Shown: in pieces, positions 1,805-26,592 of the stretch
How positions within the stretch are numbered: position 1 is the first letter of the stretch
Layout of the letters: every line of letters starts with the position of its first letter
NCBI GenBank assembly: GCA_004297735.1
Contig: SCTI01000001.1
Location: forward strand, 115,467-179,466
Length of the DNA: 64,000 nucleotides
Direction: 5' to 3'
From: Patescibacteria group bacterium
Lineage (GTDB): Bacteria; Patescibacteriota; Saccharimonadia; UBA4664; SCTI01
Position numbers and translations under genes: made by a program
The notes under the pieces: generated by a model
What the model saw: the letters and a program-made list of their open reading frames with translations, nothing else
The model's database searches: none
Told to the model about the DNA's origin: nothing

Positions 1805-1810
1805 CTAAAA

Positions 1811-1969
1811 CTACTTCTTAGAGCCTTTTTTCTCAGCTTGAGACTGTTGCAGTTCAGACATGCGCTGATTTATTAATTGAAGGTTTTGCTTCGAAATCTC
1901 TAAACGCTGCAACTCGTCGTAGGCAAGCGCTTTTAACTTATCTATATCAGAAATTTGACTGAGATCCAT
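1811..1969 (-). CDS. Small hypothetical coiled-coil protein (52 aa), below the ORF-track length cutoff
   Basis: Minus-strand ATG at 1969 preceded by GAGGAG with 5-nt spacing. Translation MDLSQISDIDKLKALAYDELQRLEISKQNLQLINQRMSELQQSQAEKKGSKK, stop at 1811-1813. Convergent with tig. Confidence 0.4.
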   Translation of the reverse strand: MDLSQISDIDKLKALAYDELQRLEISKQNLQLINQRMSELQQSQAEKKGSKK

Positions 1970-2001
1970 AGTACTCCTCGAAGTAATCTGTTTAGTATGT
2001 C

Positions 2002-3870
2002 TTATAGTATATCAAACCAGGCGCCGTTGGCCGGAGCGGTAAATATCCAGCCAGTGTTGCCAGATACATTAGTGGAGTTGGCTCCGGCATACCAAGCTGC
2101 TCCTCCGGTGGCAGTTGAGTCTTGAATCGAAAGATAGTCGCAGCTTACCGTTCCACTTGATTTTGAGAGGGTAGCGGCTGAGCCCCCAGTAGAGCTGTTG
2201 ATTGTCATGAGCTTACCGGATGTTCCATTAACGTTAAACGCGCCCGTTATTGTGGTGGTAGTGCCACTAGTAAATTGAAGCGTCCTGGCGTTACTCGAGT
2301 CAGAGAAGTTGATGGTTCCAAAAGTGTTTGATCCGGTAATAATTAGGTTTCCAGTTGATCCGGCTAAAGTGTAGGTGAGAGTACCATATGTTTTATCTGC
2401 GCCGTTAAAAGTTCTGCTACTTGAGGTGGTCGTTGTGATGACAATAGTAGCACTACTTGAATTAACCACCGCGCCTGTACTAGTTACATTCCATACCGCA
2501 CTAGGAGATACCAGTGTCCCGGTTAGGGTCCAGGTGCCAGTTCCCATGTTAACGGTTGCTCCATTGTTAATCTGGTAGTTACCAATCGTGACATTATAGC
2601 TATTTGTTTCAAAGACCAAGCCAGATCCAACCGTTACTAAATTGTTCATCTGTAGCGCATCCTGCAAAGAGTATGTTGCGCCAGGTGCAGCTACCTGTCC
2701 AAACAAAGCCATGGACTTCCCGGCCGAGGTTATTGTATGTGAGCTCCGACCTGCAAGCGTAAAGGTAGTACCTCCATTTACTGTGCCGACATTTGTCAGG
2801 TTGAGGGAGCCATACATGAATGCTGTTGCAGTAACCGACCAGGTTGGGCTGCCGGAGCTTCCTGTCCAGTTTATGTCCTTACCGAGTCTTGGCATGTCTC
2901 CCGTAACTGTCTGACTCGCTGAGAATGCACTACTTATTACTACATTGTCTTGCGGTAGCGGCACACGGCTGGTCCATTTTGATACATCAGACCAGTTGCC
3001 TCCACTAGTGCCCTGCCAGGTTTGGGTAACCGAAGTGTCGAAAGTTATATTGCTGTTGCCTAGGCAGTTGCCTAGCGAAGTGCCAGTAAAAGGTATGGCT
3101 GCACCGCTTGCGTTAATGTCTCTAAAGTCAACATTGGTTAAGGATACCGATGCCGCGCTTACGGTGGCTGCAGAGCCTAGTGACAAAGATGTAGCGAGCA
3201 CCCTATTGGTAACACTATTGCCGGTAATAGTTAAAGTTCCAGTTACGATAGAGGATCCGCCGTTGAACTGGATGGTGTCTGTTTTCGCCGCCGTGCCAGT
3301 ACGGGTAAGGTTTTTGCACGTAAAGGTGTTTGCGACAATTGCCACACCAGAACCAGCCATAACAATAGATCCGCCATTAGTGTTAAAGCCAGAGCCACCA
3401 AACCAAGTCGAGGTAGCGCCATTTAGAGTAACGGTTGATGTGTTGGTGGTTACGGTAAGGTTGGTAAATGTACTTGTGTCCCAAGCAGTCCCAGTAGAGG
3501 TTAGCGTGATGGCGGAACTGCCCATTGTCAACGTACGAGCGCTGCTATTAGAAGATATTAGCTTGCCCCAGTTACAGGTTTGGCCATTTGCATTTAGGGT
3601 TCCAGTGGTAAGTGTGACTGCGCCCACCACGGTTGAACCAGCGTTGTGCAGTAAAGTTAGGTCAGACTTATTTATCGTAATGGTGTTGGCGTTGGCGGTT
3701 GCGCCAGTAATAGTTACGGTGGCGGCTGTGCCGGAGTTGCTGTCAAAGGTAACGTCGTCAGAAGATGTGGGTACTGACGCTCCACTCGAGCCCCCAGTGG
3801 TGGCGGACCAATGAGAGGTGTCCGACCCATCCCAGTTACCGCTACCTCCAACCCAAAAACGACTGGCCAT
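2002..3870 (-). CDS. Large Thr/Gly/Asn/Ser-rich repetitive protein (622 aa), beta-helix or adhesin-like passenger-type repeats; no signal peptide
   Basis: ORF track. Low-complexity repeats of the form TxTLTxTG...NGG. Its stop abuts the upstream gene at 3870/3871, so the two are co-transcribed. Confidence 0.6.
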   Translation of the reverse strand: MASRFWVGGSGNWDGSDTSHWSATTGGSSGASVPTSSDDVTFDSNSGTAATVTITGATANANTITINKSDLTLLHNAGSTVVGAVTLTTGTLNANGQTCNWGKLISSNSSARTLTMGSSAITLTSTGTAWDTSTFTNLTVTTNTSTVTLNGATSTWFGGSGFNTNGGSIVMAGSGVAIVANTFTCKNLTRTGTAAKTDTIQFNGGSSIVTGTLTITGNSVTNRVLATSLSLGSAATVSAASVSLTNVDFRDINASGAAIPFTGTSLGNCLGNSNITFDTSVTQTWQGTSGGNWSDVSKWTSRVPLPQDNVVISSAFSASQTVTGDMPRLGKDINWTGSSGSPTWSVTATAFMYGSLNLTNVGTVNGGTTFTLAGRSSHTITSAGKSMALFGQVAAPGATYSLQDALQMNNLVTVGSGLVFETNSYNVTIGNYQINNGATVNMGTGTWTLTGTLVSPSAVWNVTSTGAVVNSSSATIVITTTTSSSRTFNGADKTYGTLTYTLAGSTGNLIITGSNTFGTINFSDSSNARTLQFTSGTTTTITGAFNVNGTSGKLMTINSSTGGSAATLSKSSGTVSCDYLSIQDSTATGGAAWYAGANSTNVSGNTGWIFTAPANGAWFDIL

Positions 3871-6837
3871 TTAAGCTTCCTGCGAGACCGCCAAGCAGTC
3901 CCATTTACTATCGGCGCTGTTATATATGAACCCTAGGTAGTGCGTCTTACTAATAACGGTAGTTGTTGGCAAAGAGGTCCCAACCGCTCGGTAAATCGCA
4001 TTCCAGGCCAGAGATCTGGCAGTCCCATTATCTTTAATGCGGATAATTAGCGACTGGCCATCGGTTGGTGTCCCGGTTGGCGCGCCGAAGGTGGCGCCAA
4101 CCGCCAGGGCGGTCAGAAGGTAGACATCGGTAGTGTCGGCATTTGGCGTGGGAGTGGAGCTTGAGGTGTTGCTGGATATTCGCTTAGTGATACGCTTGTT
4201 GGTCAGGGTTTGGGTGGCATCGATGTTGGCTACCGAGTTAGCCGCCGTACCGGCCGCAGCAACAATTAGGTTGTCATCGGTCTTGAGGGTGTCGGCAGCT
4301 GAGCGATAAAGGTTGGTGTCAGCTGATGCTCCTTGGCCAAACAATATGCCAGCTCCGGGTGTAGCAGAAGCGGTTGCGCCAATGTAGACTTGGTTTGCGG
4401 TTCCGTTATTGGCGCTTAAATAAGATGCTGATAAAAACTGATCATCGGTTTTTAGGGTGTCAGCGGCGCTTCTATATAAGTTGGTGTCGGTTCCAAATGT
4501 AATACCACTAGCTGCCGTACCAGCGGTGCTACTTAACTGTAGTGTATATGTCGAAGCACCCGCGATACGTACCCCAATATTAGATGAACTACCAGCTGTT
4601 TGAGCTGCGACATCTACGCCATATAGATTGACGGGTACTATTGATCCCAAGCTTGGGGCAGATATATACATCGCTACTGCATTGGTTAGAACCCCGGAGT
4701 CAGTACCAGTGTCAATGCGATTAAACCCTGCGTAGGCAGTACCAATAGTCACTCCTGTAGGGGGAGTGCTTTTAGCAATATTAATAAACCCATACACCAC
4801 CGTTGGGTCGGTAGATGGCTTAAATTCGGGCTGTACCGCTAGGCCACCAGGACCAGCGGCGCTACCTGAAAAAATTGGGCTAACCTGCTGGCCTCTTGCG
4901 TTTGCTGTTGAGGTCGTAGTGGTGCCGGTAACAAGCATAAGTGTACTTGGGTTGGATGTAGGCTCAACACGGAGCATGTCATCTGTCTTTAAGACATCGG
5001 CCGCTGAACGGTAAAGGTTAGTGTCGGTTGCGCTGGCTCCACCGGCTCCCCACTCGTGCTTGCCATCGCCAAAAATTCGAAAGGCGGCGTTTGTATCACC
5101 GTTGATTAAATAGTTTGCTATAAATGCGGTTACAGCTGTTTGTGAACCTTGGAGCGCAACCGTTGTAGCTGTATCGGCAAAAAAACCAACAGCTGCGCGT
5201 AACCTGTCGTCGGTTTTTAAACTATCTGCTGCCGAGCGATACAGGTTGGTATCGGCACCGAACAAAATACCACCGGCAGCGGTTGTGGCACTATCAAACG
5301 TAAGGGCCGAACTAATCGTGGCGCTTGATCCGATTCGGACCTTACCGGAGTTATCGATTCGCATACGCTCGGTTACGGTCGTTGTGCCAGCGGGGGTGGT
5401 GTAGAAAGCCAGGCGTCCTGGCATGTCGGCAGCGGCCGGAGTGCCGTCAACCTCCGCCCGGATTAAGGCCGCAAAGGTGTTTGAGTTTGAGCCGTTAGCT
5501 CCAATAAAACTGATCTGACCAAGGTTATCGCCTGACTGCACAATTGTCGTGGAGCCATTGGCTGTTCCGCGCGATTTTACAAAATATATACCGGGCGGGT
5601 TGGCGTCGGCCGAGTTTCTGGTGGCGGATATGGTGGATCCAGCCGCATCGGTACCTTCTAATTGAAGTTGAGGAATTAGGCCGTTGATTGTTCTGAGAGT
5701 TGTATTGTTGTTGCTAATTAAGGTTGCGCCACTAGGATTGACCGTGATCAGCGATGTACCAGAGTACTGTAAACGATAAGCGGTTGTGGCGGCAGAGGTG
5801 ACATTAAGGCGAATACCAGAGGTATTATTGGTTGAAGTAAACTCCAGGATTGGTGCCGCTGCCGTAAAACGCAGAGTCCCGGTATTGGTCCGGGCAAAGG
5901 TGGAGTCGCCACCAAAAGAAAGACCCCCGCTGGTGCTTGCGTTATCGGGGAACAGTATTTGGGTGCTAGCCCCTGACATATTGAGGCTGCCATTCATGGT
6001 GTCGCCGGTATCATCCACCTTGCCAGCAATTGCACTGGTATTTGCCTTTAGGTCGAGTGCGGCCTGGGTGGCAGTTGAGATTGGTTTACTTAAGTCGGAG
6101 GTATTGTCGACATTGCCCAGGCCTACCGCCGACTTATCTAGCGTTTGCCAGCTTTTGTCGCCCCGCCAGTATTGAAGAGTAGTACCAGCGGTGATAGTTG
6201 GCTCTTTGCCGGCTAAGTCGCTGGTTAGATTGGCGACTTTTGCCTGGGCGATATTGGCGCCAACCGCTACCTCGGTGTCGGTTATGGCTAGCGCAATCTT
6301 GTTTTGAGAGATATTGGCCGAGTTTGATATATCAATATCGAGGATGGTGCTTGGGGCGATTTTGCCGGTAGTAACGGCATCGTCAGCCAGCTTAACCTCG
6401 GTGACCGATCCGTCAATAGGGGTTCGCGCGTTGGTCAAGCGTGAGTCGTCGCCTTTAACAACCTGGGTGGCCGTTGCATCACCGCTAGCGGCAACGTCTT
6501 TAGTGGCGGCGGTTCCCAGGCCCGAGACGTCATTGGTATCGAGTGTGACTGCCCCGGTCTTACCGGCGACACTGGTTACCGGTGCGCCTGGCGGGGCAGA
6601 CCATATACCATCGCCGCGCAAGTAGGTACCAGAGTTGGCAGCGCCGCCGCCAAGTTGACCGGCAACAACTAGCCCCCCGCCATCCAACTCAGCCACACCA
6701 CCAGGTTGGCCTTTTTGGGCAGCAGGAATAGGCTGAATCTTAAGTGAGCCATCATCATTATGCTCAACTTTTAAGAAATCATTAAGTAACTCACCCCATT
6801 GACCATTATCTGATCCTGGAATAGGTAAACGAGTCAT
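3871..6837 (-). CDS. Phage tail-fibre-like giant protein (988 aa): tail-fibre repeat motifs (GLGNVDNTSDLSKPIS, GDTMNGSLNMSG), 4x TNLYRSAADxLKTDD repeats, conserved N-terminal module shared with CDS 24159..26432
   Basis: Motifs read directly from the translation. Repeat copies at about nt 5250, 5022, 4485 and 4317. No N-terminal hydrophobic signal. Confidence 0.65.
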   Translation of the reverse strand: MTRLPIPGSDNGQWGELLNDFLKVEHNDDGSLKIQPIPAAQKGQPGGVAELDGGGLVVAGQLGGGAANSGTYLRGDGIWSAPPGAPVTSVAGKTGAVTLDTNDVSGLGTAATKDVAASGDATATQVVKGDDSRLTNARTPIDGSVTEVKLADDAVTTGKIAPSTILDIDISNSANISQNKIALAITDTEVAVGANIAQAKVANLTSDLAGKEPTITAGTTLQYWRGDKSWQTLDKSAVGLGNVDNTSDLSKPISTATQAALDLKANTSAIAGKVDDTGDTMNGSLNMSGASTQILFPDNASTSGGLSFGGDSTFARTNTGTLRFTAAAPILEFTSTNNTSGIRLNVTSAATTAYRLQYSGTSLITVNPSGATLISNNNTTLRTINGLIPQLQLEGTDAAGSTISATRNSADANPPGIYFVKSRGTANGSTTIVQSGDNLGQISFIGANGSNSNTFAALIRAEVDGTPAAADMPGRLAFYTTPAGTTTVTERMRIDNSGKVRIGSSATISSALTFDSATTAAGGILFGADTNLYRSAADSLKTDDRLRAAVGFFADTATTVALQGSQTAVTAFIANYLINGDTNAAFRIFGDGKHEWGAGGASATDTNLYRSAADVLKTDDMLRVEPTSNPSTLMLVTGTTTTSTANARGQQVSPIFSGSAAGPGGLAVQPEFKPSTDPTVVYGFINIAKSTPPTGVTIGTAYAGFNRIDTGTDSGVLTNAVAMYISAPSLGSIVPVNLYGVDVAAQTAGSSSNIGVRIAGASTYTLQLSSTAGTAASGITFGTDTNLYRSAADTLKTDDQFLSASYLSANNGTANQVYIGATASATPGAGILFGQGASADTNLYRSAADTLKTDDNLIVAAAGTAANSVANIDATQTLTNKRITKRISSNTSSSTPTPNADTTDVYLLTALAVGATFGAPTGTPTDGQSLIIRIKDNGTARSLAWNAIYRAVGTSLPTTTVISKTHYLGFIYNSADSKWDCLAVSQEA

Positions 6838-7024
6838 GTTTTAGTTCAAAACCCTACACACAAACATTTAGACATACTTCTTATGATTACATTATATTCT
6901 GACAGAGCAATTAAACCAAGTAATTTTGCTTATATATTAGAGTTAGTATAGCTAAATTAGCAGTCTAGACAGGGGAGTGCTAAAAAGCTATACTAAAAAC
7001 CAAGAGATTTGGCAGGAGTAACTC

Positions 7025-7630
7025 ATGAATCAGACCCCAAAAAATTCAATCTTAGTCCCAACCGTTTTAGAAAAAACTCATCAAGGTGAGCGCGCCTACG
7101 ATATTTACTCGCGCCTGCTTAAGGACCGAATTATTTTTGTTGGTACTGCTATTGATGATACGGTGGCGAATCTAATAATTGCACAGTTGCTTCATCTCGA
7201 GAATGAAGATCCTAAGGCTGATATCCAGATGTACATTAACTCGCCGGGTGGATCGGTTTATGCTGGCCTAGCTATGATTGATACGATGAACTACATTAAG
7301 CCAGAGGTTTCGACTATTTGTGTTGGGATGGCGTTTAGTATGGGGTCGCAGTTGCTGGCTGCGGGCGCAAAAGGCAAACGCTTTGCACTCCCAAATTCTA
7401 AGGTCATGATTCACCAGGGGTCGGCGGGATTCCAGGGGAGCCCATCGGATATCGAGATTACTGCTAAAGAGGTCCTGTCGCTTCGTGAGGTGTTGGATCG
7501 GCAGCTAGCTGAGGCTACCGGAAAGTCATATGAGCAGGTTCGTAAAGACTCTGATCGTGACTACTACATGACCGCAAAAGAGGCTAAAGAGTATGGCATT
7601 ATTGACGAGGTAATTAGCCGTAGCTCGTAA
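7025..7630 (+). CDS. clpP: ATP-dependent Clp protease proteolytic subunit
   Basis: 201 aa with catalytic Ser (GMAFSMGS), His (MIHQ) and Asp triad context. Preceded by a GGAG RBS. Confidence 0.95.
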
Positions 7631-7750: not shown

Positions 7751-7910
7751 CGTGTAGGACTTCTGTACTTGCGAGCTGGTACAAGTGCAAAAGTTCTAGA
7801 AGCATCACACACGTACGCGTCACTGCCGATTTAGAAACACCTCTTGATTATTGCTAGGACGAATGTCCCCCTGGCGCCCCACATTACCAATAATCAAGAA
7901 GGAGGATGTC

Positions 7911-10900
7911 TTGGCACAGGCCACCGAGCGTCGATTCTTTAACAAAAACCGCGAAGTTATCGCACTACCAAATTTAATTCAAAATCAAATTGCCTCGTTT
8001 GAGTGGTTCACCACCGAAGGCCTTAAGGAGCTGTTTGCTTCGGTTAGTCCAATTGAGGACTTTACCGGTAAGAGCCTAGCGCTCTACTTTAAGGACTTTT
8101 ACTTTGAAGAGCCCAAGATCGATGAGGCTACCGCTAAAGGTAAGAACATAACCTACGAAGTGCCGCTTAAGGCAGTGGTTGAGCTGGTTAATAAAGAGAC
8201 CGGCGAGAAGAAGAGCCAGGAAATCTTTTTGGGTGACTACCCCTGGATGACCAGTAAGGGCACCTTCATCATTAATGGTGTTGAGCGAGTAGTGATTAGC
8301 CAGTTGGTTCGTTCACCTGGCGTATTCTTTGCTTCCGACATGGTTGGCGACGAGCACCTATTTGGCGCCAAGGTTATTCCAAGCCGTGGAGCTTGGTTGG
8401 AGTTCGATACCGCTCCAAACGGCGTGATTTCGGTCAAGATTGATCGTAAGCGCAAGCTGCCGGTTACCACTCTGTTGCGCGCCTTTGGATTTGCCGATGA
8501 TTCCGAAATTAAAAGTCTGTTTAAAGACGTTGATACCGGTGAGGTTAAGTACATCAATGAGACCCTCGATAAGGACGCTACCAGCAACATGAGCGAGGCC
8601 TTGATGGAGGTTTATCGCCGGATTCGTCCGGGTGATTTGGCTACCGTTGATAACTCAAAGCAGTTGATTGAAGGCATGTTCTTTGACCCTAAGCGTTACG
8701 ACTTTTCGAAGGTCGGTCGCTACAAGATTAACCGCCGATTTGGTACCAAGGTGCCAAACACGGTTGAAAACCGCATCTTCCGCCGTGAGGATTTGGTAGA
8801 CATCTTGCGCGAGATCATCCGTCTTAACAACGACCCTCAGGCTAAGCCAGAGGATATTGATGATCTGTCAAACCGTCGCTTGCGAATGGTTGGTGAGCTG
8901 ATTCAGGATCGTTTCCGAATTGGTCTTTTGCGCATGGAGCGCAACGTTAAGGATAAGATGAGCTTGTACGACCGCGAGACAGTTACCCCAGGTCAGCTGG
9001 TTAACGTTCGACCGGTAGTGGCTAGCGTTAAGGAGTTCTTTGCTAGCTCGCAGTTGAGCCAGTTTATGAACCAAACCAACCCACTAGCCGAGATTGCGCA
9101 CAAGCGACGCTTAACCGCGACCGGCGCCGGTGGTTTAAGCCGCGAACGAGCCGGTTTTGAGGTGCGCGATGTACACCGTAGTCACTATGGTCGTATCTGC
9201 CCAATTGAAACTCCCGAAGGTCCAAACGTTGGTTTGGTGTCCAACCTGGCTACTTATACTCAAGTTAATGAGTACGGCTTTTTGGAAACTCCTTATCGCA
9301 AGGTACTAAATGAGGTTCCGGCGGCTGAGGCGGCGGGGCATATTGCTCGAACCAACATCAAAGACTCTAGTGGCAGTGTGATCGTAAAGACGGGTGAGGT
9401 TATCACCGCAGCAGCAGCTAAAAAGCTAGCTAAGCTAGACAGCGAAATGGTGCCGGTTAAGGCTAAGGTTACCAGCGACGTGGTCTACTTGGATTCTGCC
9501 GACGAAGCCCAGGCTGCTATCACCGAAGCTTCAACCCCACTAAACGATGACAACTACTTTGCTGAAAGTCGCGTACCGGTTCGTCGTGGTGGCGAGACGG
9601 TTGAGGCCGACTCAAACTTGGTCAACTACATGGATGTATCAAGTAAGCAAATCATCTCGGTTTCAACCGCTTTGATTCCATTTATTGAAAACGATGACCC
9701 GAAGCGAGCGCTGATGGGCGCGAACATGCAGAAGCAGGCCGTTTCGCTAGTTAAGCCAGAGGCGCCAGTGGTTGGTACCGGTATGGAGGCGATTGTGGCT
9801 CGCGATTCAGGTCAGGTGATTGTGGCCGAAGAGGATGGCGAGGTGATTACCGCTACCGCCAGCAAGATCGTGGTTAAGTACAAGAAAAAGGGCGAGCAAA
9901 CCTACGAGCTGATTAAGTTTTCGCGCAGCAACGAAGGCACCAGTGTTAACCAAAAGGTAGTGGTAACCAGCGGTCAGAAGCTCAAGCAGGGTGACGTGTT
10001 GGCCGATGGTATGTCGACCGATAATGGTGAGCTGGCGCTGGGCCAGAACGTGCTGGTGGCATTCATGTCATGGGGTGGTTACAACTTTGAGGACGCCATC
10101 ATTATCAGCCAGCGGTTGGTACAGGATGATCGTTACAGCTCAATTCACATTGAGACCTACGAGGTCGACGTGCGTGACACCAAGCTGGGGCCGGAGATTG
10201 TTACTCGAGACATTCCAAACGTTAGCGAAGACAGCCTTAAAGACTTGGACGAAAACGGTGTGGTCCGCATTGGTGCGGAGGTTAGCGCCGGAGACATTCT
10301 AGTCGGCAAGATTACTCCTAAGGGTGAGCAAGAGCTGTCGAGCGAAGAGCGTTTGCTGCGAGCCATCTTTGGCGAAAAGGCCCGCGACGTTAAAGATACC
10401 AGCCTGCGGATGCCAAACGGCGAACGTGGTAAGGTGGTTGGCGTTAAGGTCTTTAGCCGCGAAAACGGTGACGAGCTACAGGCCGGAGTAATCGAGCAGT
10501 ATCACGTATCGGTAGCTCAGCTACGTAAAATGAGCGCCGGCGACAAGATGGCCGGACGCCACGGTAACAAGGGTGTGGTTGCTAAGGTTGTGCCAATCGA
10601 GGATATGCCATATCTCGATGATGGTACTCCAGTCGACATGATTTTGAACCCGCTTGGCGTAAGTTCACGTATGAACATCGGACAGGTGTTTGAGACTCAC
10701 CTGGGTCTTGCCGCTCGAGCGCTGGGTTACAACGTGGCTACACCAGCCTTTGACGGTGTTAACGTCGAAAAGATTAAAGAAGAGCTCAAGCGAGCCGGCC
10801 TCCCCGATGATGGTAAGTCGCAGCTGTTTGACGGTAAGACCGGCGAGCCGTTCCAGGAGCGAACTACGGTTGGTTACAAGTACATGCTTAAGCTCGACCA

Positions 10901-19822: not shown

Positions 19823-20146
19823 ATGACCAAAGAAGACGCACCTAAACAACGAATTCGCATCCGCTTAAAGGCCTACGATAACAAGGTTATCGACCAGTCG
19901 GCCAAGCAGATTCTTGATACCGCTATTCGCACCGGCGCTAAGGTTGCGGGGCCAATTCCGCTCCCAACCGACCGCAAGGTGACCACGGTCATCAAGAGCC
20001 CGCACGTCTTTAAAAAGGGACGAGAGCAGTTTGAGATGCGAACTCACAAGCGGCTATTAGACATCACCGAGCCAACCCCACGAACCGTTGACTCGCTGAT
20101 GAACCTCAATTTGCCAGCTGGCGTCGATATTGAAATCAAGATGTAG
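19823..20146 (+). CDS. rpsJ: 30S ribosomal protein S10
   Basis: 107 aa with the S10 signature RIRLKAYD. Confidence 0.95.
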
Positions 20147-20167
20147 CCATTAAGGCTGATCGCAAAG

Positions 20168-20196
20168 AAGTCCCGAAAGGGGCTTTTTTGTTTTTA
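20168..20196 (+). terminator. Rho-independent terminator after rpsJ
   Basis: aagtccc-gaaa-ggggctt stem-loop followed by tttttgttttt. Confidence 0.6.
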
Positions 20197-20329
20197 ACAT
20201 TCCAGATGTATTAGTTTAATACTACAAGCGCAGATATGAAATTAAGGCAATATTTGTAATTATTCACCAATGACAATATGATAAAGATAAGAGCATTGTA
20301 GAAATAGCTTAACAAAGGAGTTTTTAGTA

Positions 20330-20878
20330 ATGAAAGAGTATCTCCAAACAATGTGGTGGCTTTTGCTACTACGCGGCATATTTCTAATCCTACTAGGATT
20401 TTTTGCGGTGGTGTGGCCTGGTCTCACCCTGTACAGTTTTGCCCTCGGCTTTGCGTTGTACCTGGTGCTAGCAGGCATCGTCAATGCAATTAGCAGCCTG
20501 ATGGGTATTGGTAAGTTGCCACTGTGGTTTTTGTGGCTAGTGGTTGCCATTCTTGAGATTGGCGTAGGTGTATATGCACTTAAGCACCTGACTCTAACGG
20601 TGGCCACCATGATCTTGTTGGTAGGCCTGGTCTTTGTGGTCCGCGGCCTAATGGAGCTGATCTCCGCCTTTGGCGATGGCTTTGACGGCAAGCAGCGCAC
20701 CCTGTACGCCCTGTTGGGTGTATTGAGCTTGATTGCTGGTGTGGCGGTTTGGCTGTACCCGGTTGCGGGCGGCCTAGCCTTTACCTGGATCATTGGTTTG
20801 TACGGTATTGCGGCCGGCGCGTTCTTAATTGCGATGGCAATCGAGGCCAAGGGAGAGCTGAACAAGCTTGCGGCCTAA
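20330..20878 (+). CDS. HdeD/DUF308-like small multi-pass membrane protein
   Basis: 182 aa, about 6 TM helices, repeated W/G-rich helices typical of the HdeD family. Assignment is from general family appearance only. Confidence 0.5.
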   Translation: MKEYLQTMWWLLLLRGIFLILLGFFAVVWPGLTLYSFALGFALYLVLAGIVNAISSLMGIGKLPLWFLWLVVAILEIGVGVYALKHLTLTVATMILLVGLVFVVRGLMELISAFGDGFDGKQRTLYALLGVLSLIAGVAVWLYPVAGGLAFTWIIGLYGIAAGAFLIAMAIEAKGELNKLAA

Positions 20879-20991
20879 CTAGAGCGTCCATAACAGCCAC
20901 CCTTGATGCTCTGGGTGGCTGTTTGGATCTGCTTATGGTTGCGTTTAGATAAATCACAGGCCACAATGGGTGGCATACGGTAAGGAGAAGT

Positions 20992-21486
20992 ATGGATTTT
21001 CAGCAGGCAATTGAGTTTATGGCGGCGGTGTTAGTGGTAGCCGGTTCCGGAATTGTCTTGGGAGTGGCGATTAGAGGTAGAGGGCAGGTTAAGGCTCAAG
21101 CTCAAGCGAACCAAGCCCAGAGTAAGTTGGCTGATCTGTATGCAGAAATTATTGGTGAGTTGGACGAAGTTACAAAGGCCGATGAGCGGCGGAAGCAGTG
21201 GTTTATACATCGCTACTATCAAGCCTTGGTGACTGCTCCAGATTCGGTGATTCGGGCGCTCAACCGTTATCTCGACGCGGTTGGTACGGTCGAAGATGTT
21301 GATACCAAACAGATTATGGAGCTGCGTGGAGCCTTGATTAAGGCGATGAGACAGGATATTCAGCAGTCGGTAGGGACAAAAACCAAGCTGCACCCGCAGG
21401 AGCTTTACAAGATTGAGATCCGCTCTGGCGTAATTGATGAGGCGTCCGCCAAAGATACCCGCCGCGAAAGACAAACCTCACGCTAG
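20992..21486 (+). CDS. Hypothetical protein with an N-terminal TM helix and a coiled-coil region
   Basis: ORF track, 164 aa. Confidence 0.5.
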   Translation: MDFQQAIEFMAAVLVVAGSGIVLGVAIRGRGQVKAQAQANQAQSKLADLYAEIIGELDEVTKADERRKQWFIHRYYQALVTAPDSVIRALNRYLDAVGTVEDVDTKQIMELRGALIKAMRQDIQQSVGTKTKLHPQELYKIEIRSGVIDEASAKDTRRERQTSR

Positions 21487-21551
21487 TAGTAGTAAATTCC
21501 TAGCATAAGCAGTATTATCAAAAAGTAAAACTATCAAACGGAAGCAGTTAA

Positions 21552-22019
21552 ATGGCTAGACCAACACAGCGGCGAGTGTATCGCCAAGCTAGTGGCAATC
21601 AAAACCTCGCTAGTCGCTATAATAGCCGTCGCTGGTATGAAATTCCCGACTGGGCAAAGGTTTGGGTGGTGGATAATGCCGGATGGGTTACCGCTATCAT
21701 TGCGCTGGTTTTATTCCCACCGACTTTGCTAGCGCTGGTATTGGGGGTGTACCGACTGCCCTTCCTCGATTTTTTGGGTGTACCGACCAGCGCCAATGGG
21801 CTTGGTTTGGCCGCCGCGGTCTTAATTATTAAATTTATTTTTGTGGTGGCAGCGATCCGGCCGCTATTTAAACGAGAAATAAAGGGCTGGTATTTCCTGG
21901 TTGCCGCCGCCACTGTCCACTTGGCGCATAGTGTGATCCTCCAGCACGCTATTACTGGTACGGCAGTGCTATTGGGTACGGTGTATCTCTACGTTATGGT
22001 GCGCCGTCGATATCACTAA
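21552..22019 (+). CDS. Small membrane protein, paralog A of a tandem pair
   Basis: 155 aa. Shares the motifs W.V...W......LVLF.P..LLAL..G....PF and LF.R..I.GW with the next gene. Confidence 0.55.
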   Translation: MARPTQRRVYRQASGNQNLASRYNSRRWYEIPDWAKVWVVDNAGWVTAIIALVLFPPTLLALVLGVYRLPFLDFLGVPTSANGLGLAAAVLIIKFIFVVAAIRPLFKREIKGWYFLVAAATVHLAHSVILQHAITGTAVLLGTVYLYVMVRRRYH

Positions 22020-22082
22020 AGGTGTGTTTGCTTTAGTATAAGCATTAGTAGTATGATCACCTTGTAATAAAAGGAAATTATC

Positions 22083-22532
22083 ATGGCAACCTCCCAACCA
22101 CCAAAAGAGCTAATGGGATGGCTTGAATATTATTTAGTGACCAAGGCTCCGTTTCAGATCCCGCCCAACGCGCGTGAGTGGATTGTAAAATATAGCCCCT
22201 GGATTAACATCGTACTGTTAGTATTGTTCGCACCGGCAATTTTGCTTGCACTAGGAGTTGGAGCGGCGTTGGTGCCATTTAGTGCGGTCGGGGGAGCGAG
22301 TGCAGCCACCGGACTATCTTTTGCGCTGGTAGCCCTGGTGCTTCAAGTTGGCTTGATGATCGCTGCCCTACCTGGTTTGTTTGCGCGCAAAAAGATTGGT
22401 TGGCAACTGGTATTTTATAGTGTGGTGCTGAACCTGATCTTTAGCCTCCTTAACTTTAATATTGTTGGCGGTTTACTCAGCGCGGTATTAGGGTCATACG
22501 TTCTGTTCCAGATCAAGTCCTACTACAAATAG
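22083..22532 (+). CDS. Small membrane protein, paralog B of a tandem pair
   Basis: 149 aa. See the paralog at 21552..22019. Confidence 0.55.
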   Translation: MATSQPPKELMGWLEYYLVTKAPFQIPPNAREWIVKYSPWINIVLLVLFAPAILLALGVGAALVPFSAVGGASAATGLSFALVALVLQVGLMIAALPGLFARKKIGWQLVFYSVVLNLIFSLLNFNIVGGLLSAVLGSYVLFQIKSYYK

Positions 22533-22598
22533 GCCGAAGCCGCCTCGGGCCAAACATTAACCGTTGTCAGCTAACGATCTGAAGCGGATAATGACGAC

Positions 22599-23807
22599 AT
22601 GAGTTTGTTTGCCAAAAATACGTCGCCACTTGCCGATCGGATGCGCCCCTCGAGCCTTGACGAGGTGGTGGGGCAGGACCATGTGGTCGGCCCCGATGGG
22701 TTGTTGCGACAGATGCTTGAGTCCGGCAAAATTGGCTCGCTTATCTTGTGGGGGCCTCCAGGAACCGGCAAAACAACCTTGGCCCGCATTATGGCGGCTC
22801 ACGAGGGGTACGCTTTTGAGGAGCTTTCGGCGGTAACCTCCGGCCTGCCCGAGGTCCGCAAGGTCATGGAGCGGGCTCGCCAGCGGCAGGCGATGGGGCA
22901 GTCAACCATTCTGTTCGTGGATGAGATCCACCGTTTCAATAAGGCCCAGCAAGATGCTTTTTTGCCGCACATTGAAGACGGCACAATTATTTTAATTGGG
23001 GCCACCACCGAAAACCCATCGTTTGAGGTTATTTCACCACTGCTTTCACGCGCGCGAGTGGTGGTATTAAAGTCGCTAACTAAAGATCAGCTTGAGTTGC
23101 TACTCGACCGCGCCGCCGATAACCTTGAGGGCGCAACCGTCACGCCGGAAGCAGTTGAGTTATTGGCTGAACTGGCGGCGGGAGATGCTAGGGTCGCATT
23201 AGGTGGGCTGGAGGCGGCTGCCACCCTAGAGCCAAAGGTAACGCCTGCTACCGTGCGCAACGCCATGCAAAAAACTAGCTTGCGCTACGACAAGGGTGGG
23301 GAGTTCCATTACAATTTAATATCGGCCTATATTAAATCGATGCGCGGAGGCGCGATTGATGCGGCCTTATTTTACCTAGCTCGCATGTTGGAGGCGGGCG
23401 AGGATCCAAAGTTTATTGCGCGCCGAATTGTCATATTTGCCTCCGAAGACATTGGTCTGGCCGACAACAACATGCTCTTACTGGCAACATCGACTTTTCA
23501 GGCAATTGAGCGAATTGGCATGCCGGAAGGTCGTATTATCTTGAGTCAGGCCACCATCGCTATGTGCCAAGCGCCTAAAAATCGTGACGCTTATAACGCT
23601 ATTGGTGCGGCTAGCCAGGCGGTTCGTCAACATCCTGCCGCCGAGCCACCAGCGCACTTACGCAACGCCCCAACCAAGCTAATGAAGGAGTTGGGGTATG
23701 GCAAAGAAACAAAATGGGAGCCTGGATTTAAGCACCCCAAGGGTTTTATGCCCGAAGGCTTAGATGACCTTACGCTATATTCGCCGGATAACACTAGTAA
23801 GCATTAG
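22599..23807 (+). CDS. rarA: Replication-associated recombination protein A (AAA+ ATPase RarA/MgsA)
   Basis: Walker A LWGPPGTGKTT, FVDEIHRFNK, and the C-terminal MgsA domain. Confidence 0.9.
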   Translation: MSLFAKNTSPLADRMRPSSLDEVVGQDHVVGPDGLLRQMLESGKIGSLILWGPPGTGKTTLARIMAAHEGYAFEELSAVTSGLPEVRKVMERARQRQAMGQSTILFVDEIHRFNKAQQDAFLPHIEDGTIILIGATTENPSFEVISPLLSRARVVVLKSLTKDQLELLLDRAADNLEGATVTPEAVELLAELAAGDARVALGGLEAAATLEPKVTPATVRNAMQKTSLRYDKGGEFHYNLISAYIKSMRGGAIDAALFYLARMLEAGEDPKFIARRIVIFASEDIGLADNNMLLLATSTFQAIERIGMPEGRIILSQATIAMCQAPKNRDAYNAIGAASQAVRQHPAAEPPAHLRNAPTKLMKELGYGKETKWEPGFKHPKGFMPEGLDDLTLYSPDNTSKH

Positions 23808-23830
23808 AGTTTTGAGGTATATTCTGAGGC

Positions 23831-24082
23831 ATGGCTCGAACTATTAAGTCGACAAACACAGAGTACGACAGCGTTTATTTTTTGAAGGTGTTGTTGTATC
23901 TAGTTTTGGCAACAACCTGGCTAGCCCCTTCTGGCCATCGCTATGTACCGGTTGGCCTTATTATTGGTGTGATTATAGTTCAGCACGAACGCTTCCAGAT
24001 TGATCGAAAGATAGAATATGCGGTGATGTTGGTTGGAGCGGTGCTTGGTTTGGTGGGTATTGGTATTACTATTTCGATTTAG
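23831..24082 (+). CDS. Small 2-TM membrane protein, hypothetical
   Basis: ORF track, 83 aa, hydrophobic. Confidence 0.4.
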   Translation: MARTIKSTNTEYDSVYFLKVLLYLVLATTWLAPSGHRYVPVGLIIGVIIVQHERFQIDRKIEYAVMLVGAVLGLVGIGITISI

Positions 24083-24158
24083 CCCCACCTCCTTATTGCC
24101 CTTACGCTTACATCCAGCTACAATAAGTAACAAGTTAAGTGTGAGTTAATTAGCATTC

Positions 24159-26432
24159 ATGGCCCGTCTCCCAACAATAGGAAGCGATAACGGTAATTGG
24201 GGAGCTATCCTCAATGACTACTTGTCTCAAGAACTAAACTCAGATGGCTCCCTTAAGATCCGTACCGATGGCACACTATCCTCAGCTGTAGCTGACGGTT
24301 CCATTACAGCCTCTAAACTCTCACCCACCGTTAACAACTATCTAGCTTCCGCCCAAACTGCTGTACAGAGTGTTAACGGTAAGGCTGGTACCGCTGTAAC
24401 TCTAGCTGCCGCAGATATCTCGGGCGTGGTACCCTCCACTCAGTTAGGAGCAGCCTCCGGCGTAGCCACCTTAGACGGCTCAAGCAAGCTTACTAGTAGT
24501 CAAATACCAGCAACGGTGTCGACAGCGAGTGGTGGCAGTGACGGCCAGATTTCGGTAGTTTCAGGTGGTTTGTTCACGCTCAAGGACCCTTCGGTAATAG
24601 ATATAACAATGCCGCCATACAACGCCGACCCAACCGGCACTACTGATGCTTCAGCAGAGTTTCAGGCTGCAATAAATGCACTTTATTCAGCCGGCGGCGG
24701 CACTATATACGCCCCAACCGGCACGTACTTATTTTCTAATACGCAAATGTCATGGCGGACCAAAGTATCTTTAAGGGGTGATGGACCTGGGCAAACTATT
24801 TTTAAAATGGTTGGCTGGGGAGGGTCATTAATTGAAAAGGGCAATAGCTATGCTTCGCCAATGAAGGATTGTACGTTCTCCGACTTTGAGGTTGATGGCT
24901 CACTTATTGATGGTCGAGTTTGTTCTGCGACAAATGGTTCAGCGACGATTACGAGCGCTGGGCATGGATTGAGCAACGGTGACGCTGTTCGCTGGGCAAG
25001 CGGTCTTGCTCCTACCAACTTCACCGCACTTACAACAGCGTATTATGTTGTCAACAAGACAACCGATACATTCCAGCTGTCGGCGACACTTAACGGTGCG
25101 GCAATTAACGCTGGGTCAACTGGCGGTGCATATAAAACCTTTACGACAGCAAAGGCAATCTATACCACATATAACGTCCGTAACCGTTACGTTAACCTGT
25201 ATGTTCACGACACCACTGCAACCGGCCTGGGAGTCGATTTTCTTGTCGATTGCGCTTTTGACCGGTGCGTTGTCGAAAATGCCGGGCGCGACTCAGGCGG
25301 GAGCCTATTGGGCTCTTCGGGGATTGGCATTGGCACCGGAGCTTGGGATGTCGAAAGCACCACTATTACCGACTGCATAATTCGTAGCAGCGCACGTAAT
25401 GGAATATTTTTCGAAAGGCAGGCCACATTGCCTAACGGTGGAGGGTCGGGCGGAACCCCATATTATAGCCGCGGAGCCATAGTCCATGGTAATACAATCA
25501 TTGCTTGCAAGTATGGTATTGCGGATAACGGAATAGAAGGGGCCCAAATTTGGGGTAATAGGATCGAAGACAGCACCTCCTACGGTTTTTATGTTGGTGC
25601 CGGGAACGCGGGCACAGCAGGGCGCAAGGGTAAGTTTTTTAAGAACATTGTTAAAAACTCTACCAGTTATGGTATTTACCTTGATGCCAGTACGACAACA
25701 TTGTCTGGCTATGAGATCAGTTCGAATGACGTTTATGAAAACGATATTGGAATTAAGGTCGCGTCGTCTGCGGCTGTACCGGAGCTAATTATTACCGATA
25801 ATGATGTTCGCAGTAACGAACGGCAGGGTATGCACGGTGGTGGTTCCGGAGCACTTACCGACGCTACCGTTATTGGCAACAGGTTTTTTAATAACGGCAC
25901 CGTTACCACCAATGCCGGTCTGGAACTAACAATGGACCTAACCCGATGTCGTATAAATCGCAATCGTGCGTTTGACAACCAGGGCGTAAAGACGCAGAGT
26001 ACGGGGGTTATTTTATCGGGCACCAATATTGCTGGGGGTGAGATCATGGATAATGATGTTATAGGTAACTCGGGGACAGGTTTAAGCATCACCAATGATA
26101 CTCAGAGCGGGTGTCTGGTTCGTCGAAATCGAGGCGCAACAACGTATCGCCAGGCTACCGCTACATCAGCGACGATGCGCCTAAACGCCGAAGTGCTTGC
26201 CGTAACCGACACATCGGCATTGCGTACCATTACTCTTCCTGGTGCTTCGGGTTTGCCGGTTGGTTCGCGAATTACGGTAAAGGACGAAAGTAATGCAGCT
26301 GGAACCAACAATATTACAATTCAGCGTGCTGGTTCGGATACGATTGATGGATCGACATCGACTACCATATCGACCAACAGTGGTTCGAAGTCATTTTATA
26401 CCGATGGATCCACTAAGTGGTTTAGCGTCTAA
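24159..26432 (+). CDS. Tailspike/depolymerase-like protein (757 aa): N-terminal module shared with CDS 3871..6837, tail-fibre-like repeat (VNGKAGTAVTLAAADISGV), then a pectate-lyase-3-type right-handed beta-helix
   Basis: PPYNADPTGTTDASAEFQAAINALYSAGGGTIYAPTGTYLF resembles the start of the Pectate_lyase_3 domain. Downstream are multiple parallel beta-helix repeats (IHGNTIIACKYGIADNG, IEDSTSYGFYV, IVKNSTSYGIYLD, ITDNDVRSNE...). Confidence 0.65.
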   Translation: MARLPTIGSDNGNWGAILNDYLSQELNSDGSLKIRTDGTLSSAVADGSITASKLSPTVNNYLASAQTAVQSVNGKAGTAVTLAAADISGVVPSTQLGAASGVATLDGSSKLTSSQIPATVSTASGGSDGQISVVSGGLFTLKDPSVIDITMPPYNADPTGTTDASAEFQAAINALYSAGGGTIYAPTGTYLFSNTQMSWRTKVSLRGDGPGQTIFKMVGWGGSLIEKGNSYASPMKDCTFSDFEVDGSLIDGRVCSATNGSATITSAGHGLSNGDAVRWASGLAPTNFTALTTAYYVVNKTTDTFQLSATLNGAAINAGSTGGAYKTFTTAKAIYTTYNVRNRYVNLYVHDTTATGLGVDFLVDCAFDRCVVENAGRDSGGSLLGSSGIGIGTGAWDVESTTITDCIIRSSARNGIFFERQATLPNGGGSGGTPYYSRGAIVHGNTIIACKYGIADNGIEGAQIWGNRIEDSTSYGFYVGAGNAGTAGRKGKFFKNIVKNSTSYGIYLDASTTTLSGYEISSNDVYENDIGIKVASSAAVPELIITDNDVRSNERQGMHGGGSGALTDATVIGNRFFNNGTVTTNAGLELTMDLTRCRINRNRAFDNQGVKTQSTGVILSGTNIAGGEIMDNDVIGNSGTGLSITNDTQSGCLVRRNRGATTYRQATATSATMRLNAEVLAVTDTSALRTITLPGASGLPVGSRITVKDESNAAGTNNITIQRAGSDTIDGSTSTTISTNSGSKSFYTDGSTKWFSV

Positions 26433-26450
26433 CAATACAAACGTTACCTG

Positions 26451-26480
26451 TTGACACCTGATGGTTTTTACTGATATAGT
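26451..26480 (+). promoter_or_regulatory. Sigma70-like promoter re-initiating the S10/spc block (TTGACA -18- TATAGT)
   Basis: ttgaca at 26451-26456 and tatagt at 26475-26480. A roughly 110-nt leader follows before rplC. Confidence 0.45.
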
Positions 26481-26592
26481 TGTCGGGTAACTTTAGCTCA
26501 ATGTATTGGGAGCTATCCGCTAGGAGATGAGCAGGTCTGCACTTAGCAGAAACCGTTCAGATCCTAGAATTATTTTTTGTTTAAGGAACGTA

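Follow-up and report, generated by a model that had tools for sequence, protein, structure and literature searches.

In phages of the Klebsiella KP32, KP34 and Menlow, the K1-5/K1E/SP6 and the G7C types, receptor-binding proteins are docked by short conserved N-terminal peptides or anchor domains, which are carried by otherwise unrelated spikes and fibres with depolymerase heads (PMC6872550). The conserved part marks the proximal end of the protein and recombination exchanges the heads behind it, each known anchor peptide belonging to one phage group and docking on a T4gp10-like domain (PMC6872550). In a 64,000-nucleotide stretch of the Patescibacteria (Saccharimonadia) contig SCTI01000001.1, hereafter the window, two distant genes encode large proteins of 988 and 757 amino acids (aa) that begin with a common module of about 35 residues, which we read, with a probability of roughly 0.55, as the proximal assembly and attachment module of a family of phage-type fibres and tailspikes. 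This module resembles the phage anchors in being a short N-terminal stretch at the proximal end of unrelated proteins whose heads are exchanged behind it, with no sequence or profile similarity to them. It differs from them in being one sequence type present on thousands of proteins, mostly chromosomally encoded, with neither a T4gp10-like nor another acceptor identified.

Residues 1-35 have no match in Pfam, PHROGs, NCBIfam or PDB sequences, and homology to the N-terminal region of T7 gp17, the P22 head-binding domain or T4gp10-binding peptides was not found. Precomputed Pfam annotations, with families as recent as PF26209 and PF26696, contain none over the module, and its matches to DUF1654 (E 0.12) and ribosomal protein S3 (E 0.094) were regarded as noise. 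The family is also undescribed in the searched literature on tail fibre-, tailspike-, receptor-binding- or depolymerase-type proteins of Saccharibacteria and Patescibacteria. That receptor-binding proteins of phages combine a conserved N-terminal part for attachment with exchangeable heads is an established principle; the module itself is undescribed in the four databases and in the searched papers. Unusual are its prevalence in chromosomes of a single bacterial class, its presence in many copies, the housekeeping genes around it and the absence of export signals.

Two further systems are instructive for comparison. The foldon of T4 fibritin is a highly conserved, C-terminal, all-beta unit of about 30 residues which ends a trimeric fibre and is formed by a hairpin with a short turn or helix. 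The module is of similar size and also has a hairpin, whereas it is N-terminal and its trimerisation is inferred; homology was not detected. Trafficking domains of the LXG and WXG100 types comprise about 100 residues or more, are helical hairpins and belong with a secretion system that is known. The logic of a conserved N-terminus, variable C-terminal modules and many paralogues per genome is the same, but the module has only 34 residues and one helix and is found in phage tail proteins as well. Assignment as a WXG100/LXG domain was rejected, as there is a single 13-residue helix, no helical hairpin of about 100 residues and no Pfam match, either down to E 0.1 with the whole window proteins or down to E 10 with the module.

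Both open reading frames (ORFs) of the initial annotation were recovered at their positions and on their strands, although the proteins are large rather than giant, as they had been called. Their parts are the following.

3871..6837, minus strand: whole gene of the 988-aa phage-tail-fibre-like protein (ORF; PHROG tail fiber and minor tail families)
6736..6837, minus strand: N-terminal module of the 988-aa protein, aa 1-34, MTRLPIPGSDNGQWGELLNDFLKVEHNDDGSLKI (motif scan, 40-column family profile)
6418..6735, minus strand: stalk of the 988-aa protein, aa 35-140, weakly common to the 757-aa protein and actinophage minor tail proteins
3874..4230, minus strand: C-terminal domain of the 988-aa protein, aa 870-988, likely the distal tip (phrog_3030, E 5e-29)
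24159..26432, plus strand: whole gene of the 757-aa tailspike-like protein, inserted between rpsJ and rplC (ORF)
24159..24260, plus strand: N-terminal module of the 757-aa protein, aa 1-34, MARLPTIGSDNGNWGAILNDYLSQELNSDGSLKI (motif scan; AlphaFold2)
24261..24533, plus strand: stalk of the 757-aa protein, aa 35 to about 125, 70-82% identical to relatives P0256-P0268, which bear other heads
24606..26138, plus strand: right-handed beta-helix head of the pectate-lyase/epimerase type in the 757-aa protein, aa about 150 to about 660 (PHROG and PDB profiles)

Both proteins start with MxRLPxxGSDNGxWGxxLNDxLxxExNxDGSLKI, with identity at 23 of 34 positions (68%, slightly above the 60% or so previously estimated), and a six-frame motif scan of the window returned these two copies only. 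The earlier view that the proteins diverge completely after the module did not hold, since BLASTP aligns aa 1-140 of the 988-aa protein with aa 1-117 of the 757-aa protein at 40% identity over 141 aa (E 7e-13). This weaker common stretch, reaching to about residue 120-140, includes the motifs V(T/Q)SV.GK.G.AVTL and AASG.AT...S(R/K)LT, and beyond about residue 140 BLASTP gave no significant similarity between the two proteins. At the DNA level, 64 of 105 nucleotides are identical between the two module copies, and the codons differ for 12 of the 23 identical residues, which argues for selection on the protein sequence and not for recent gene conversion.

Using a 40-column HMMER profile built from 74 N-termini, an exhaustive search of 1.84e9 protein clusters at 50% identity retrieved 6,682 representatives at E<=1e-3, with 5,241 of them at E<=1e-10. 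Among the best 150 of the 6,682 representatives, nearly all have the module at residues 1-39, and their lengths range from 49 to 1,202 aa. With a profile of residues 1-140, 450 small proteins were obtained in a listing that covers lengths of up to 245 aa, nearly all of which begin with M-[ATS]-R-L-P-x-P-G-[SG]-D-x-G-x-W-G-x-[IV]-L-N-[DE]-[FY]-L-x-[VQ]-[SE]-[HL]-N-x-D-G-[TS]-L-K. When 119 N-termini were compared, R3, L4, P5, G8, D10, W14, G15, L18, N19, L22 and G30 were each present in 117-118, P7 and D29 in 109 and L32 in 104. Two outliers have three copies of a module variant per chain: in P0121 (523 aa) these stand in tandem at the N-terminus, and in P0124 (753 aa) they are internal, about 100 residues apart, behind a normal Sec-type signal peptide. 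Three copies per chain fit a three-fold unit working outside the cell.

Scanning one genome per species with a profile of 10 module sequences gave at least 600 matching stretches, 572 of which were confirmed. The best 80 of these come almost entirely from metagenome-assembled genomes (MAGs) of Saccharimonadia, Saccharibacteria or Patescibacteria, including contigs of 0.6-1.2 Mb and one complete genome of 1.0 Mb, with up to three module loci per MAG and 16 loci that hold two or three module genes inside 12 kb. Thus, the profile search of related genomes that had been proposed reveals a large family, concentrated in Saccharimonadia. For genomic context, 6 kb on either side of the module genes was read in 79 Saccharimonadia loci, which are the best-scoring ones and not a random sample, and errors of MAG binning may affect the short contigs. 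A few module contigs have labels from elsewhere, namely Nevskiaceae (L040), Anaerolineae (L048), Acidobacteriota (L067) and Peribacteria (L031). The 557-kb contig DATLCF010000002.1 (L040) has a guanine-plus-cytosine (G+C) content of 51% over 12 kb and the typical cassette of the module gene with genes of the families c19 and c2, and its label or binning looks doubtful.

In members of the family, the module is followed by a stalk built of short repeats of the phage-fibre type and then by a variable head, behind which a C-terminal tip domain is sometimes added. Downstream of the module, the domains recognised in 56 large members are DUF5907 repeats (12), BppL_N (9), Beta_helix (6), PTR (6), Pect-lyase (5), GDSL esterases (5) and Collagen (2), with K1-lyase_C, GH26, CBM5/12 and others once each. 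The nine BppL_N cases carry the stalk motif VVHxxGxETIxGxKTF, and the plan of N-terminal attachment, neck and head is the one known from BppL-type receptor-binding proteins of the lactococcal phage TP901-1 (BppL_N, PF18338), the BppL_N part lying beyond the module, for instance at aa 150-173 in P0045. Numerous members are very small, with 130-250 aa made up of the module, a linker and one domain. PF26209 is annotated on many of these (P0011, P0034, P0079, P0102 and others) and is a C-terminal beta-sandwich domain that also ends the 988-aa protein.

That a common N-terminal unit is joined to differing heads, as had been supposed, is supported by the relatives of the 757-aa protein and by sister phages, which keep the module and change the head. 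In close relatives of the 757-aa protein, identity amounts to 70-82% from aa 1 to about 120, after which GDSL esterases or unrelated heads follow; conversely, P0255 has the same beta-helix head behind a different N-terminus that lacks the module. Taken together, these head switches and the window pair place the break points either right after the module, as in the window pair, or after the stalk.

In neither window protein did Pfam and NCBIfam scans of the whole chain return essentially anything, but PHROG families of tail fibers, minor tail proteins, tail spikes and baseplates match both, in every case beyond residue 35. The 988-aa protein, with its module, stalk repeats, four DTNLYRSAADxLKTDD repeats and C-terminal domain, is a mosaic of fibre parts. 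Its pieces match 361 phage records, mostly of actinophages and cyanophages (Mycobacterium 240, Arthrobacter 34, Synechococcus 33, Gordonia 24, Streptomyces 7, Rhodococcus 6), with aa 81-140 being 50-53% identical to minor tail proteins of Gordonia phages. Its C-terminal domain is 33-44% identical to those of the small members P0195, P0120 and P0102, and the same domain terminates many other small members. The four DTNLYRSAAD(T/S/V)LKTDD repeats are encoded by spaced 47-nt copies at 4274-5253 (minus strand), 74-79% identical to the reference copy, and the region around them (aa 334-568) matches cyanophage tail fibres and proteins annotated as 'chaperone of endosialidase'.

The 757-aa protein is 100% identical to the database record 'hypothetical protein EPO04_00800 [Patescibacteria group bacterium]'. 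Its beta-helix head matches the PHROG tail spike families 2234 (3e-10) and 7458, the mannuronan C5-epimerases AlgE6 (E 4e-6) and AlgE4 (E 7e-6) in the PDB, and also iota-carrageenase, and over aa 332-660 it is 29-32% identical to proteins of Klebsiella and Escherichia phages. The pectate-lyase-type N-terminal motif D.TG..D...A.Q.AI is present as YNADPTGTTDASAEFQAAINALYSAGGGTIYAPTGTY, and the head further carries the motif YNADPTGTTDASAEFQAAI. Relatives carry PF12708 and PF13229; in the 757-aa protein itself the Pfam scan gave no match at E<=0.1, and the beta-helix assignment therefore rests on the non-Pfam profiles.

The same module heads proteins of a few actinobacterial phages. It was found at the N-terminus of proteins in the Streptomyces phages BRock, GiJojo, pSt2308, LuckySocke and Alone3, with 55-67% identity, and these phage-encoded proteins, which have not been functionally described, are its true homologues. 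Behind the module, BRock gp186 (YP_009831901, 'collagen triple helix repeat-containing protein') and GiJojo gp34 (XBA13444, 'hypothetical protein') have different heads, that of GiJojo gp34 being of the pectate-lyase type like the head of the 757-aa protein. In both phages, with genomes of 112-116 kb, the module gene is embedded in the tRNA array, outside the main tail module, with a gene for a minor tail protein about 6 kb away. The start annotated for BRock gp186 (L001:7791-8738) overlaps a gene for tRNA-Lys (7845-7918) and probably lies too far upstream, the Met at 8001, where the module begins, probably being the true one. No collagen repeat is visible in its translation.

A strict-pattern scan of IMG/VR found the module on 9 of 2.9 million contigs, in four of which its gene is seen to stand inside the tail module. 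Three contigs (L005, L007, L010) share the order major head, major tail, tape-measure chaperone, tape measure, module protein, a 531-aa protein and tail-collar fibre, and in a further one (L003) PHROG annotation gives the order tape measure, Dit, module protein. The three sister contigs are otherwise syntenic, and their module proteins (L005:10001-11365, L007:10001-11479, L010:2336-3751) have the same module and next few residues followed by different beta-helix heads. Hence, what the initial annotation had offered as an analogy to tail fibres is true homology, with PHROG tail families matching both window proteins and the phage module genes adjoining those for tape-measure or Dit proteins. 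Several module phage contigs have 61-69% G+C, more than the 42-58% of the 79 Saccharimonadia loci and compatible with phages that infect bacteria of high G+C content. Actinobacteria are the only known hosts of cultivated Saccharibacteria (PMC10633639).

Heads and neighbouring genes also link the phage and the chromosomal loci. GiJojo gp34 is 44% identical over 475 aa to L085_3 from a Saccharimonadales MAG bin, on a contig of 3.7 kb that may have been mis-binned. With 40% identity, the BRock head resembles the C-terminus of a 719-aa protein from a Saccharimonadia contig of 120 kb, and the head of the L007 protein shows 33% identity over 414 aa to a section of a 1,238-aa protein encoded on one of 980 kb. 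The gene 3' of the module gene (c19) is homologous between the phage contigs L009 and L011 and the Saccharimonadia loci L039 and L040.

Single-chain AlphaFold2 models were obtained for P0102, a 174-aa 'minimal' member (21 sequences), and for aa 1-137 of the 757-aa protein (111 sequences). In both, residues 1-12 are extended and 13-25 form a helix, followed by a bridge at 26-32 or a hairpin at 26-33 and a poorly packed stalk. The predicted local distance difference test (pLDDT) score, as block means over residues 1-40, was 57-75 for P0102 and 63-83 for the 757-aa protein, with 81-83 over residues 11-30 of the latter. The predicted template modelling score of the N-terminal fragment was 0.37, a low value that is expected of a model of one fibre chain needing partners. 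W14, I17, L18, F21, L22 and V24 share one face of the helix, which by sequence and model is thus amphipathic. No solved structure matches the module by sequence, and a BFVD fold search with the N-terminal model recovered only the BRock homologue (E 0.095). 'Mtd N-terminal domain' proteins that appeared in the same search were non-significant and were not taken as a relationship. The model of the P0102 C-terminal domain is a confident beta-sandwich, whose fold weakly matches those of a phage capsid spike, of the accessory domains at the N-terminus of CBA120 tailspike 4 and of a baseplate protein from a Klebsiella phage.

From these features we infer the following arrangement, in which trimer formation, docking, the identity of the carrier, the location on the cell surface and the role in host recognition go beyond what was observed directly. 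Residues 1-12 (MxRLPxPGSDxG) would form an extended arm rich in Gly and Pro, residues 13-25 (xWGxILNDFLxVxH) a short amphipathic helix and residues 26-33 (NxDGTLK) a tight hairpin, and three copies could come together around the axis of the fibre as a small cap, closing the trimer at its N-terminal end. Such a cap would offer the surface by which the fibre is plugged onto its carrier, presumably the tail tip in phages. The head may be a beta-helix enzyme that cleaves glycans, a GDSL esterase, or a lectin-like or beta-sandwich tip. Since phage tail proteins do not have to be exported and phages and cells carry the same module, the module probably serves a structural purpose in the first place. 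As the Saccharimonadia genes are chromosomal, multi-copy and placed among housekeeping genes, their fibres would be mounted on, or released from, the epibiont cell, where they may bind or degrade envelope glycans of the bacterial host.

Several points weigh against the proximal-cap interpretation. Beyond the module gene and c19, the 79 Saccharimonadia loci contain no homologue of any ORF from the phage loci, and the module-bearing phages have no obvious common tail-tip protein; it is awkward that a docking peptide should be highly conserved when no conserved acceptor goes with it. A hydrophobic stretch (mean Kyte-Doolittle value above 2.0 over 15 residues) occurs in only 7 of 253 members, and the absence of a signal peptide or membrane segment leaves unexplained how the proteins reach the surface of a walled bacterium. 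The trimeric cap is extrapolated from single-chain models, in which pLDDT over residues 1-40 is moderate. Because no solved structure or named family matches the module, its likeness to known anchors is one of function and not of homology. Furthermore, the shortest MAG contigs are possibly mis-binned phage DNA, for example the 3.7-kb L085, which gives the best phage match.

The proximal-cap interpretation was weighed against three others, an export tag, dispersed fibres of a particle and a trimerisation element, none of which is mutually exclusive with it. The start of either protein is unlike a Sec or Tat (twin-arginine translocation) signal, as had been noticed before, with no hydrophobic h-region and no twin arginine. 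Across the family, a Sec signal peptide was rejected, as the MxRLPxPGSDxGxWG start has no hydrophobic run and P0124 alone among 253 members has such a peptide at its N-terminus. A Tat signal was rejected on account of the single Arg at position 3 and the missing h-region.

The module could nevertheless be a targeting tag for an export or anchoring route in Saccharimonadia other than Sec, maybe linked to Tat, by which folded subunits would be carried out or held at the membrane, possibly by the small Tat-signal-like protein c1 in a hitchhiker mechanism. We regard this as unlikely. The module stands at residue 1 in nearly all of the best 150 representatives and is the sole part common to thousands of otherwise unrelated proteins, a pattern similar to that of the N-terminal trafficking domains of polymorphic toxins, in which one conserved unit precedes a variable rest. 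The carbohydrate-active heads must act outside the cell and have neither a Sec nor a Tat signal. In addition, module genes have a tatC gene no more than 6 kb away in 14 of the 79 loci (L022, L023, L025, L030, L031, L033, L037, L042, L049, L056, L058, L064, L081 and L088), often with tatA alongside, when about one would be expected by chance, and the tatC-linked heads fall into 10 unrelated groups with varied gene arrangements and a median pairwise TatC identity of 39%. Members of the c1 family adjoin module genes in 11 of the 79 loci, mostly between tatC and the module gene. These are proteins of 60-89 aa with [ST]R[KR]EFL, about 20 hydrophobic residues and a tail of the form GYGGSxYGG or GYG(G/S)xxYG, like a bare Tat signal peptide (L037:5785-5982, plus strand; L049:5732-6001, plus; L030:4217-4408, minus; L064 near 4889, plus).

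However, phage tail proteins, for which no export is required, start with the same module (55-67% identity), the module lacks what defines a Tat signal, and P0124 has the unit internally behind an ordinary Sec signal peptide. The tatC, tatA and c1 genes are all absent from the 64-kb window, and c1 is absent from the phage loci too. As the window lacks these genes and loci of related genomes are not phylogenetically independent, so that the linkage could reflect an old insertion hot spot, the tatC association is kept as a lead and not as evidence. A fuller proposal along these lines, in which phage-derived fibres and depolymerases lacking signal peptides would set the host range of the epibiont and the module would be the recognition tag that hands them to a Tat-linked route or to c1 for export and surface mounting, seems rather improbable. 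If true, it would add a new signal for export or anchoring and would tie host recognition by epibionts directly, at the molecular level, to that by phages.

Alternatively, the module genes might be dispersed fibre genes of a phage-derived particle, such as a prophage, a tailocin or a gene-transfer-agent-like element, with its core cluster at another place in the genome; the module would then dock on the tail tip, with assembly in the cytoplasm and exit by lysis. This would account for both the absent signal peptides and the identity with phage tail proteins, and in the Rhodobacter gene transfer agent fibre and spike genes do lie away from the main cluster. The cassette of the module gene and c19, common to the phage contigs L009 and L011 and the Saccharimonadia loci L029, L039 and L040, speaks for it as well. 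Yet no capsid, tube, tape-measure, baseplate, terminase or integrase genes stand beside either window gene, no PHROG matches of the prophage, tailocin or gene-transfer-agent kind are found among the recurrent neighbours in the 79 loci, and flanking repeats were not found. Many copies per genome of about 1 Mb, with up to three inside 12 kb, are also many fibres for one particle, and such an origin appears improbable.

It is also quite unlikely that the module is purely an element of self-assembly, serving trimerisation or as a folding nucleus without an acceptor, in proteins that would be free enzymes or lectins. Its build of a short helix and a hairpin, the three copies per chain in the two outliers, the failure to find a conserved acceptor and the many members that have only the module, a linker and one domain in 130-250 aa would agree with this, but an oligomerisation element need not be at residue 1 and usually drifts in sequence. 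Here the polar and Gly/Pro residues of the arm (R3, P5, G8, D10) are near-invariant, and the phage module protein is encoded inside the tail module. In phage fibres, moreover, the N-terminal end is normally the attached one (PMC6872550). Finally, that the similarity is chance or a low-complexity start devoid of biological meaning, the second of which the initial annotation had named as the outcome that would overturn it, has next to no probability and is already refuted on sequence grounds by the BLASTP alignment, by the 5,241 proteins that match in register at residue 1 and by the synonymous differences within the module.

The surroundings of the two window genes are of the housekeeping kind, their neighbours being trigger factor, ClpP, RpoB/RpoC, S10, MgsA and L3. 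A prophage remnant was rejected as an explanation for either gene on account of these neighbours and the lack of adjoining capsid, tail or integrase genes, and no convincing direct or inverted repeats that could mark a mobile insertion flank them. Between the genes for trigger factor (524-1804) and clpP (7025-7630), the minus strand carries the 988-aa gene and a 622-aa ORF; rpoB and rpoC are next. Trigger factor and clpP genes are commonly neighbours, and the fibre gene pair (1805-7024) is on the strand opposite to both of them. The second gene of the pair is the following.

2002..3870, minus strand: Thr/Ser/Gly-rich ORF of 622 aa, a candidate partner, starting without a gap after the stop codon of the 988-aa gene (which ends at 3871)

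The 622-aa ORF has no module, no signal peptide and no match in Pfam, PHROG, NCBIfam or PDB, and is 40% identical over 364 aa to L056_7 (L056:7956-10049), which also stands beside module genes. In relatives, a different gene without the module often follows 0-5 nt after the module gene.

The 757-aa gene is part of a 6.4-kb insert (20147-26526) that splits rpsJ (19823-20146) from rplC (26527-), two genes that are normally adjacent in the S10 operon. Besides the 757-aa gene, the insert contains mgsA, an 83-aa membrane ORF, three unknown ORFs and a gene for a membrane protein with DUF308. The MgsA encoded there is 57-60% identical to proteins of Saccharimonadia MAGs, which, like the module family, points to this class as the source of the window. 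A promoter-like site is found 35 nt upstream of the 757-aa gene, and a near-consensus promoter (TTGACA-18-TATAGT with TG) at 26451-26480, after this gene and before rplC.

Concerning the attachment of Patescibacteria to their hosts, type IV pili and a few adhesins have been identified by transposon insertion sequencing (PMC10633639, PMC11665869). Otherwise, how these bacteria recognise and hold their hosts is largely unknown. The sequence handle M-[ATS]-R-L-P-x-P-G-[SG]-D-x-G-x-W-G-x-[IV]-L-N-[DE]-[FY]-L retrieves thousands of candidate host-binding or glycan-degrading proteins of Saccharimonadia, a family that Pfam, NCBIfam and PHROGs all miss. These candidates are built like phage receptor-binding proteins and have parts in common with actinophage tail proteins. 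The module is also a natural fusion point for the engineering of fibres, and it makes testable now the matching of heads to hosts, the competition of epibionts and phages for receptors, and the access of such proteins to the surface without a signal peptide.

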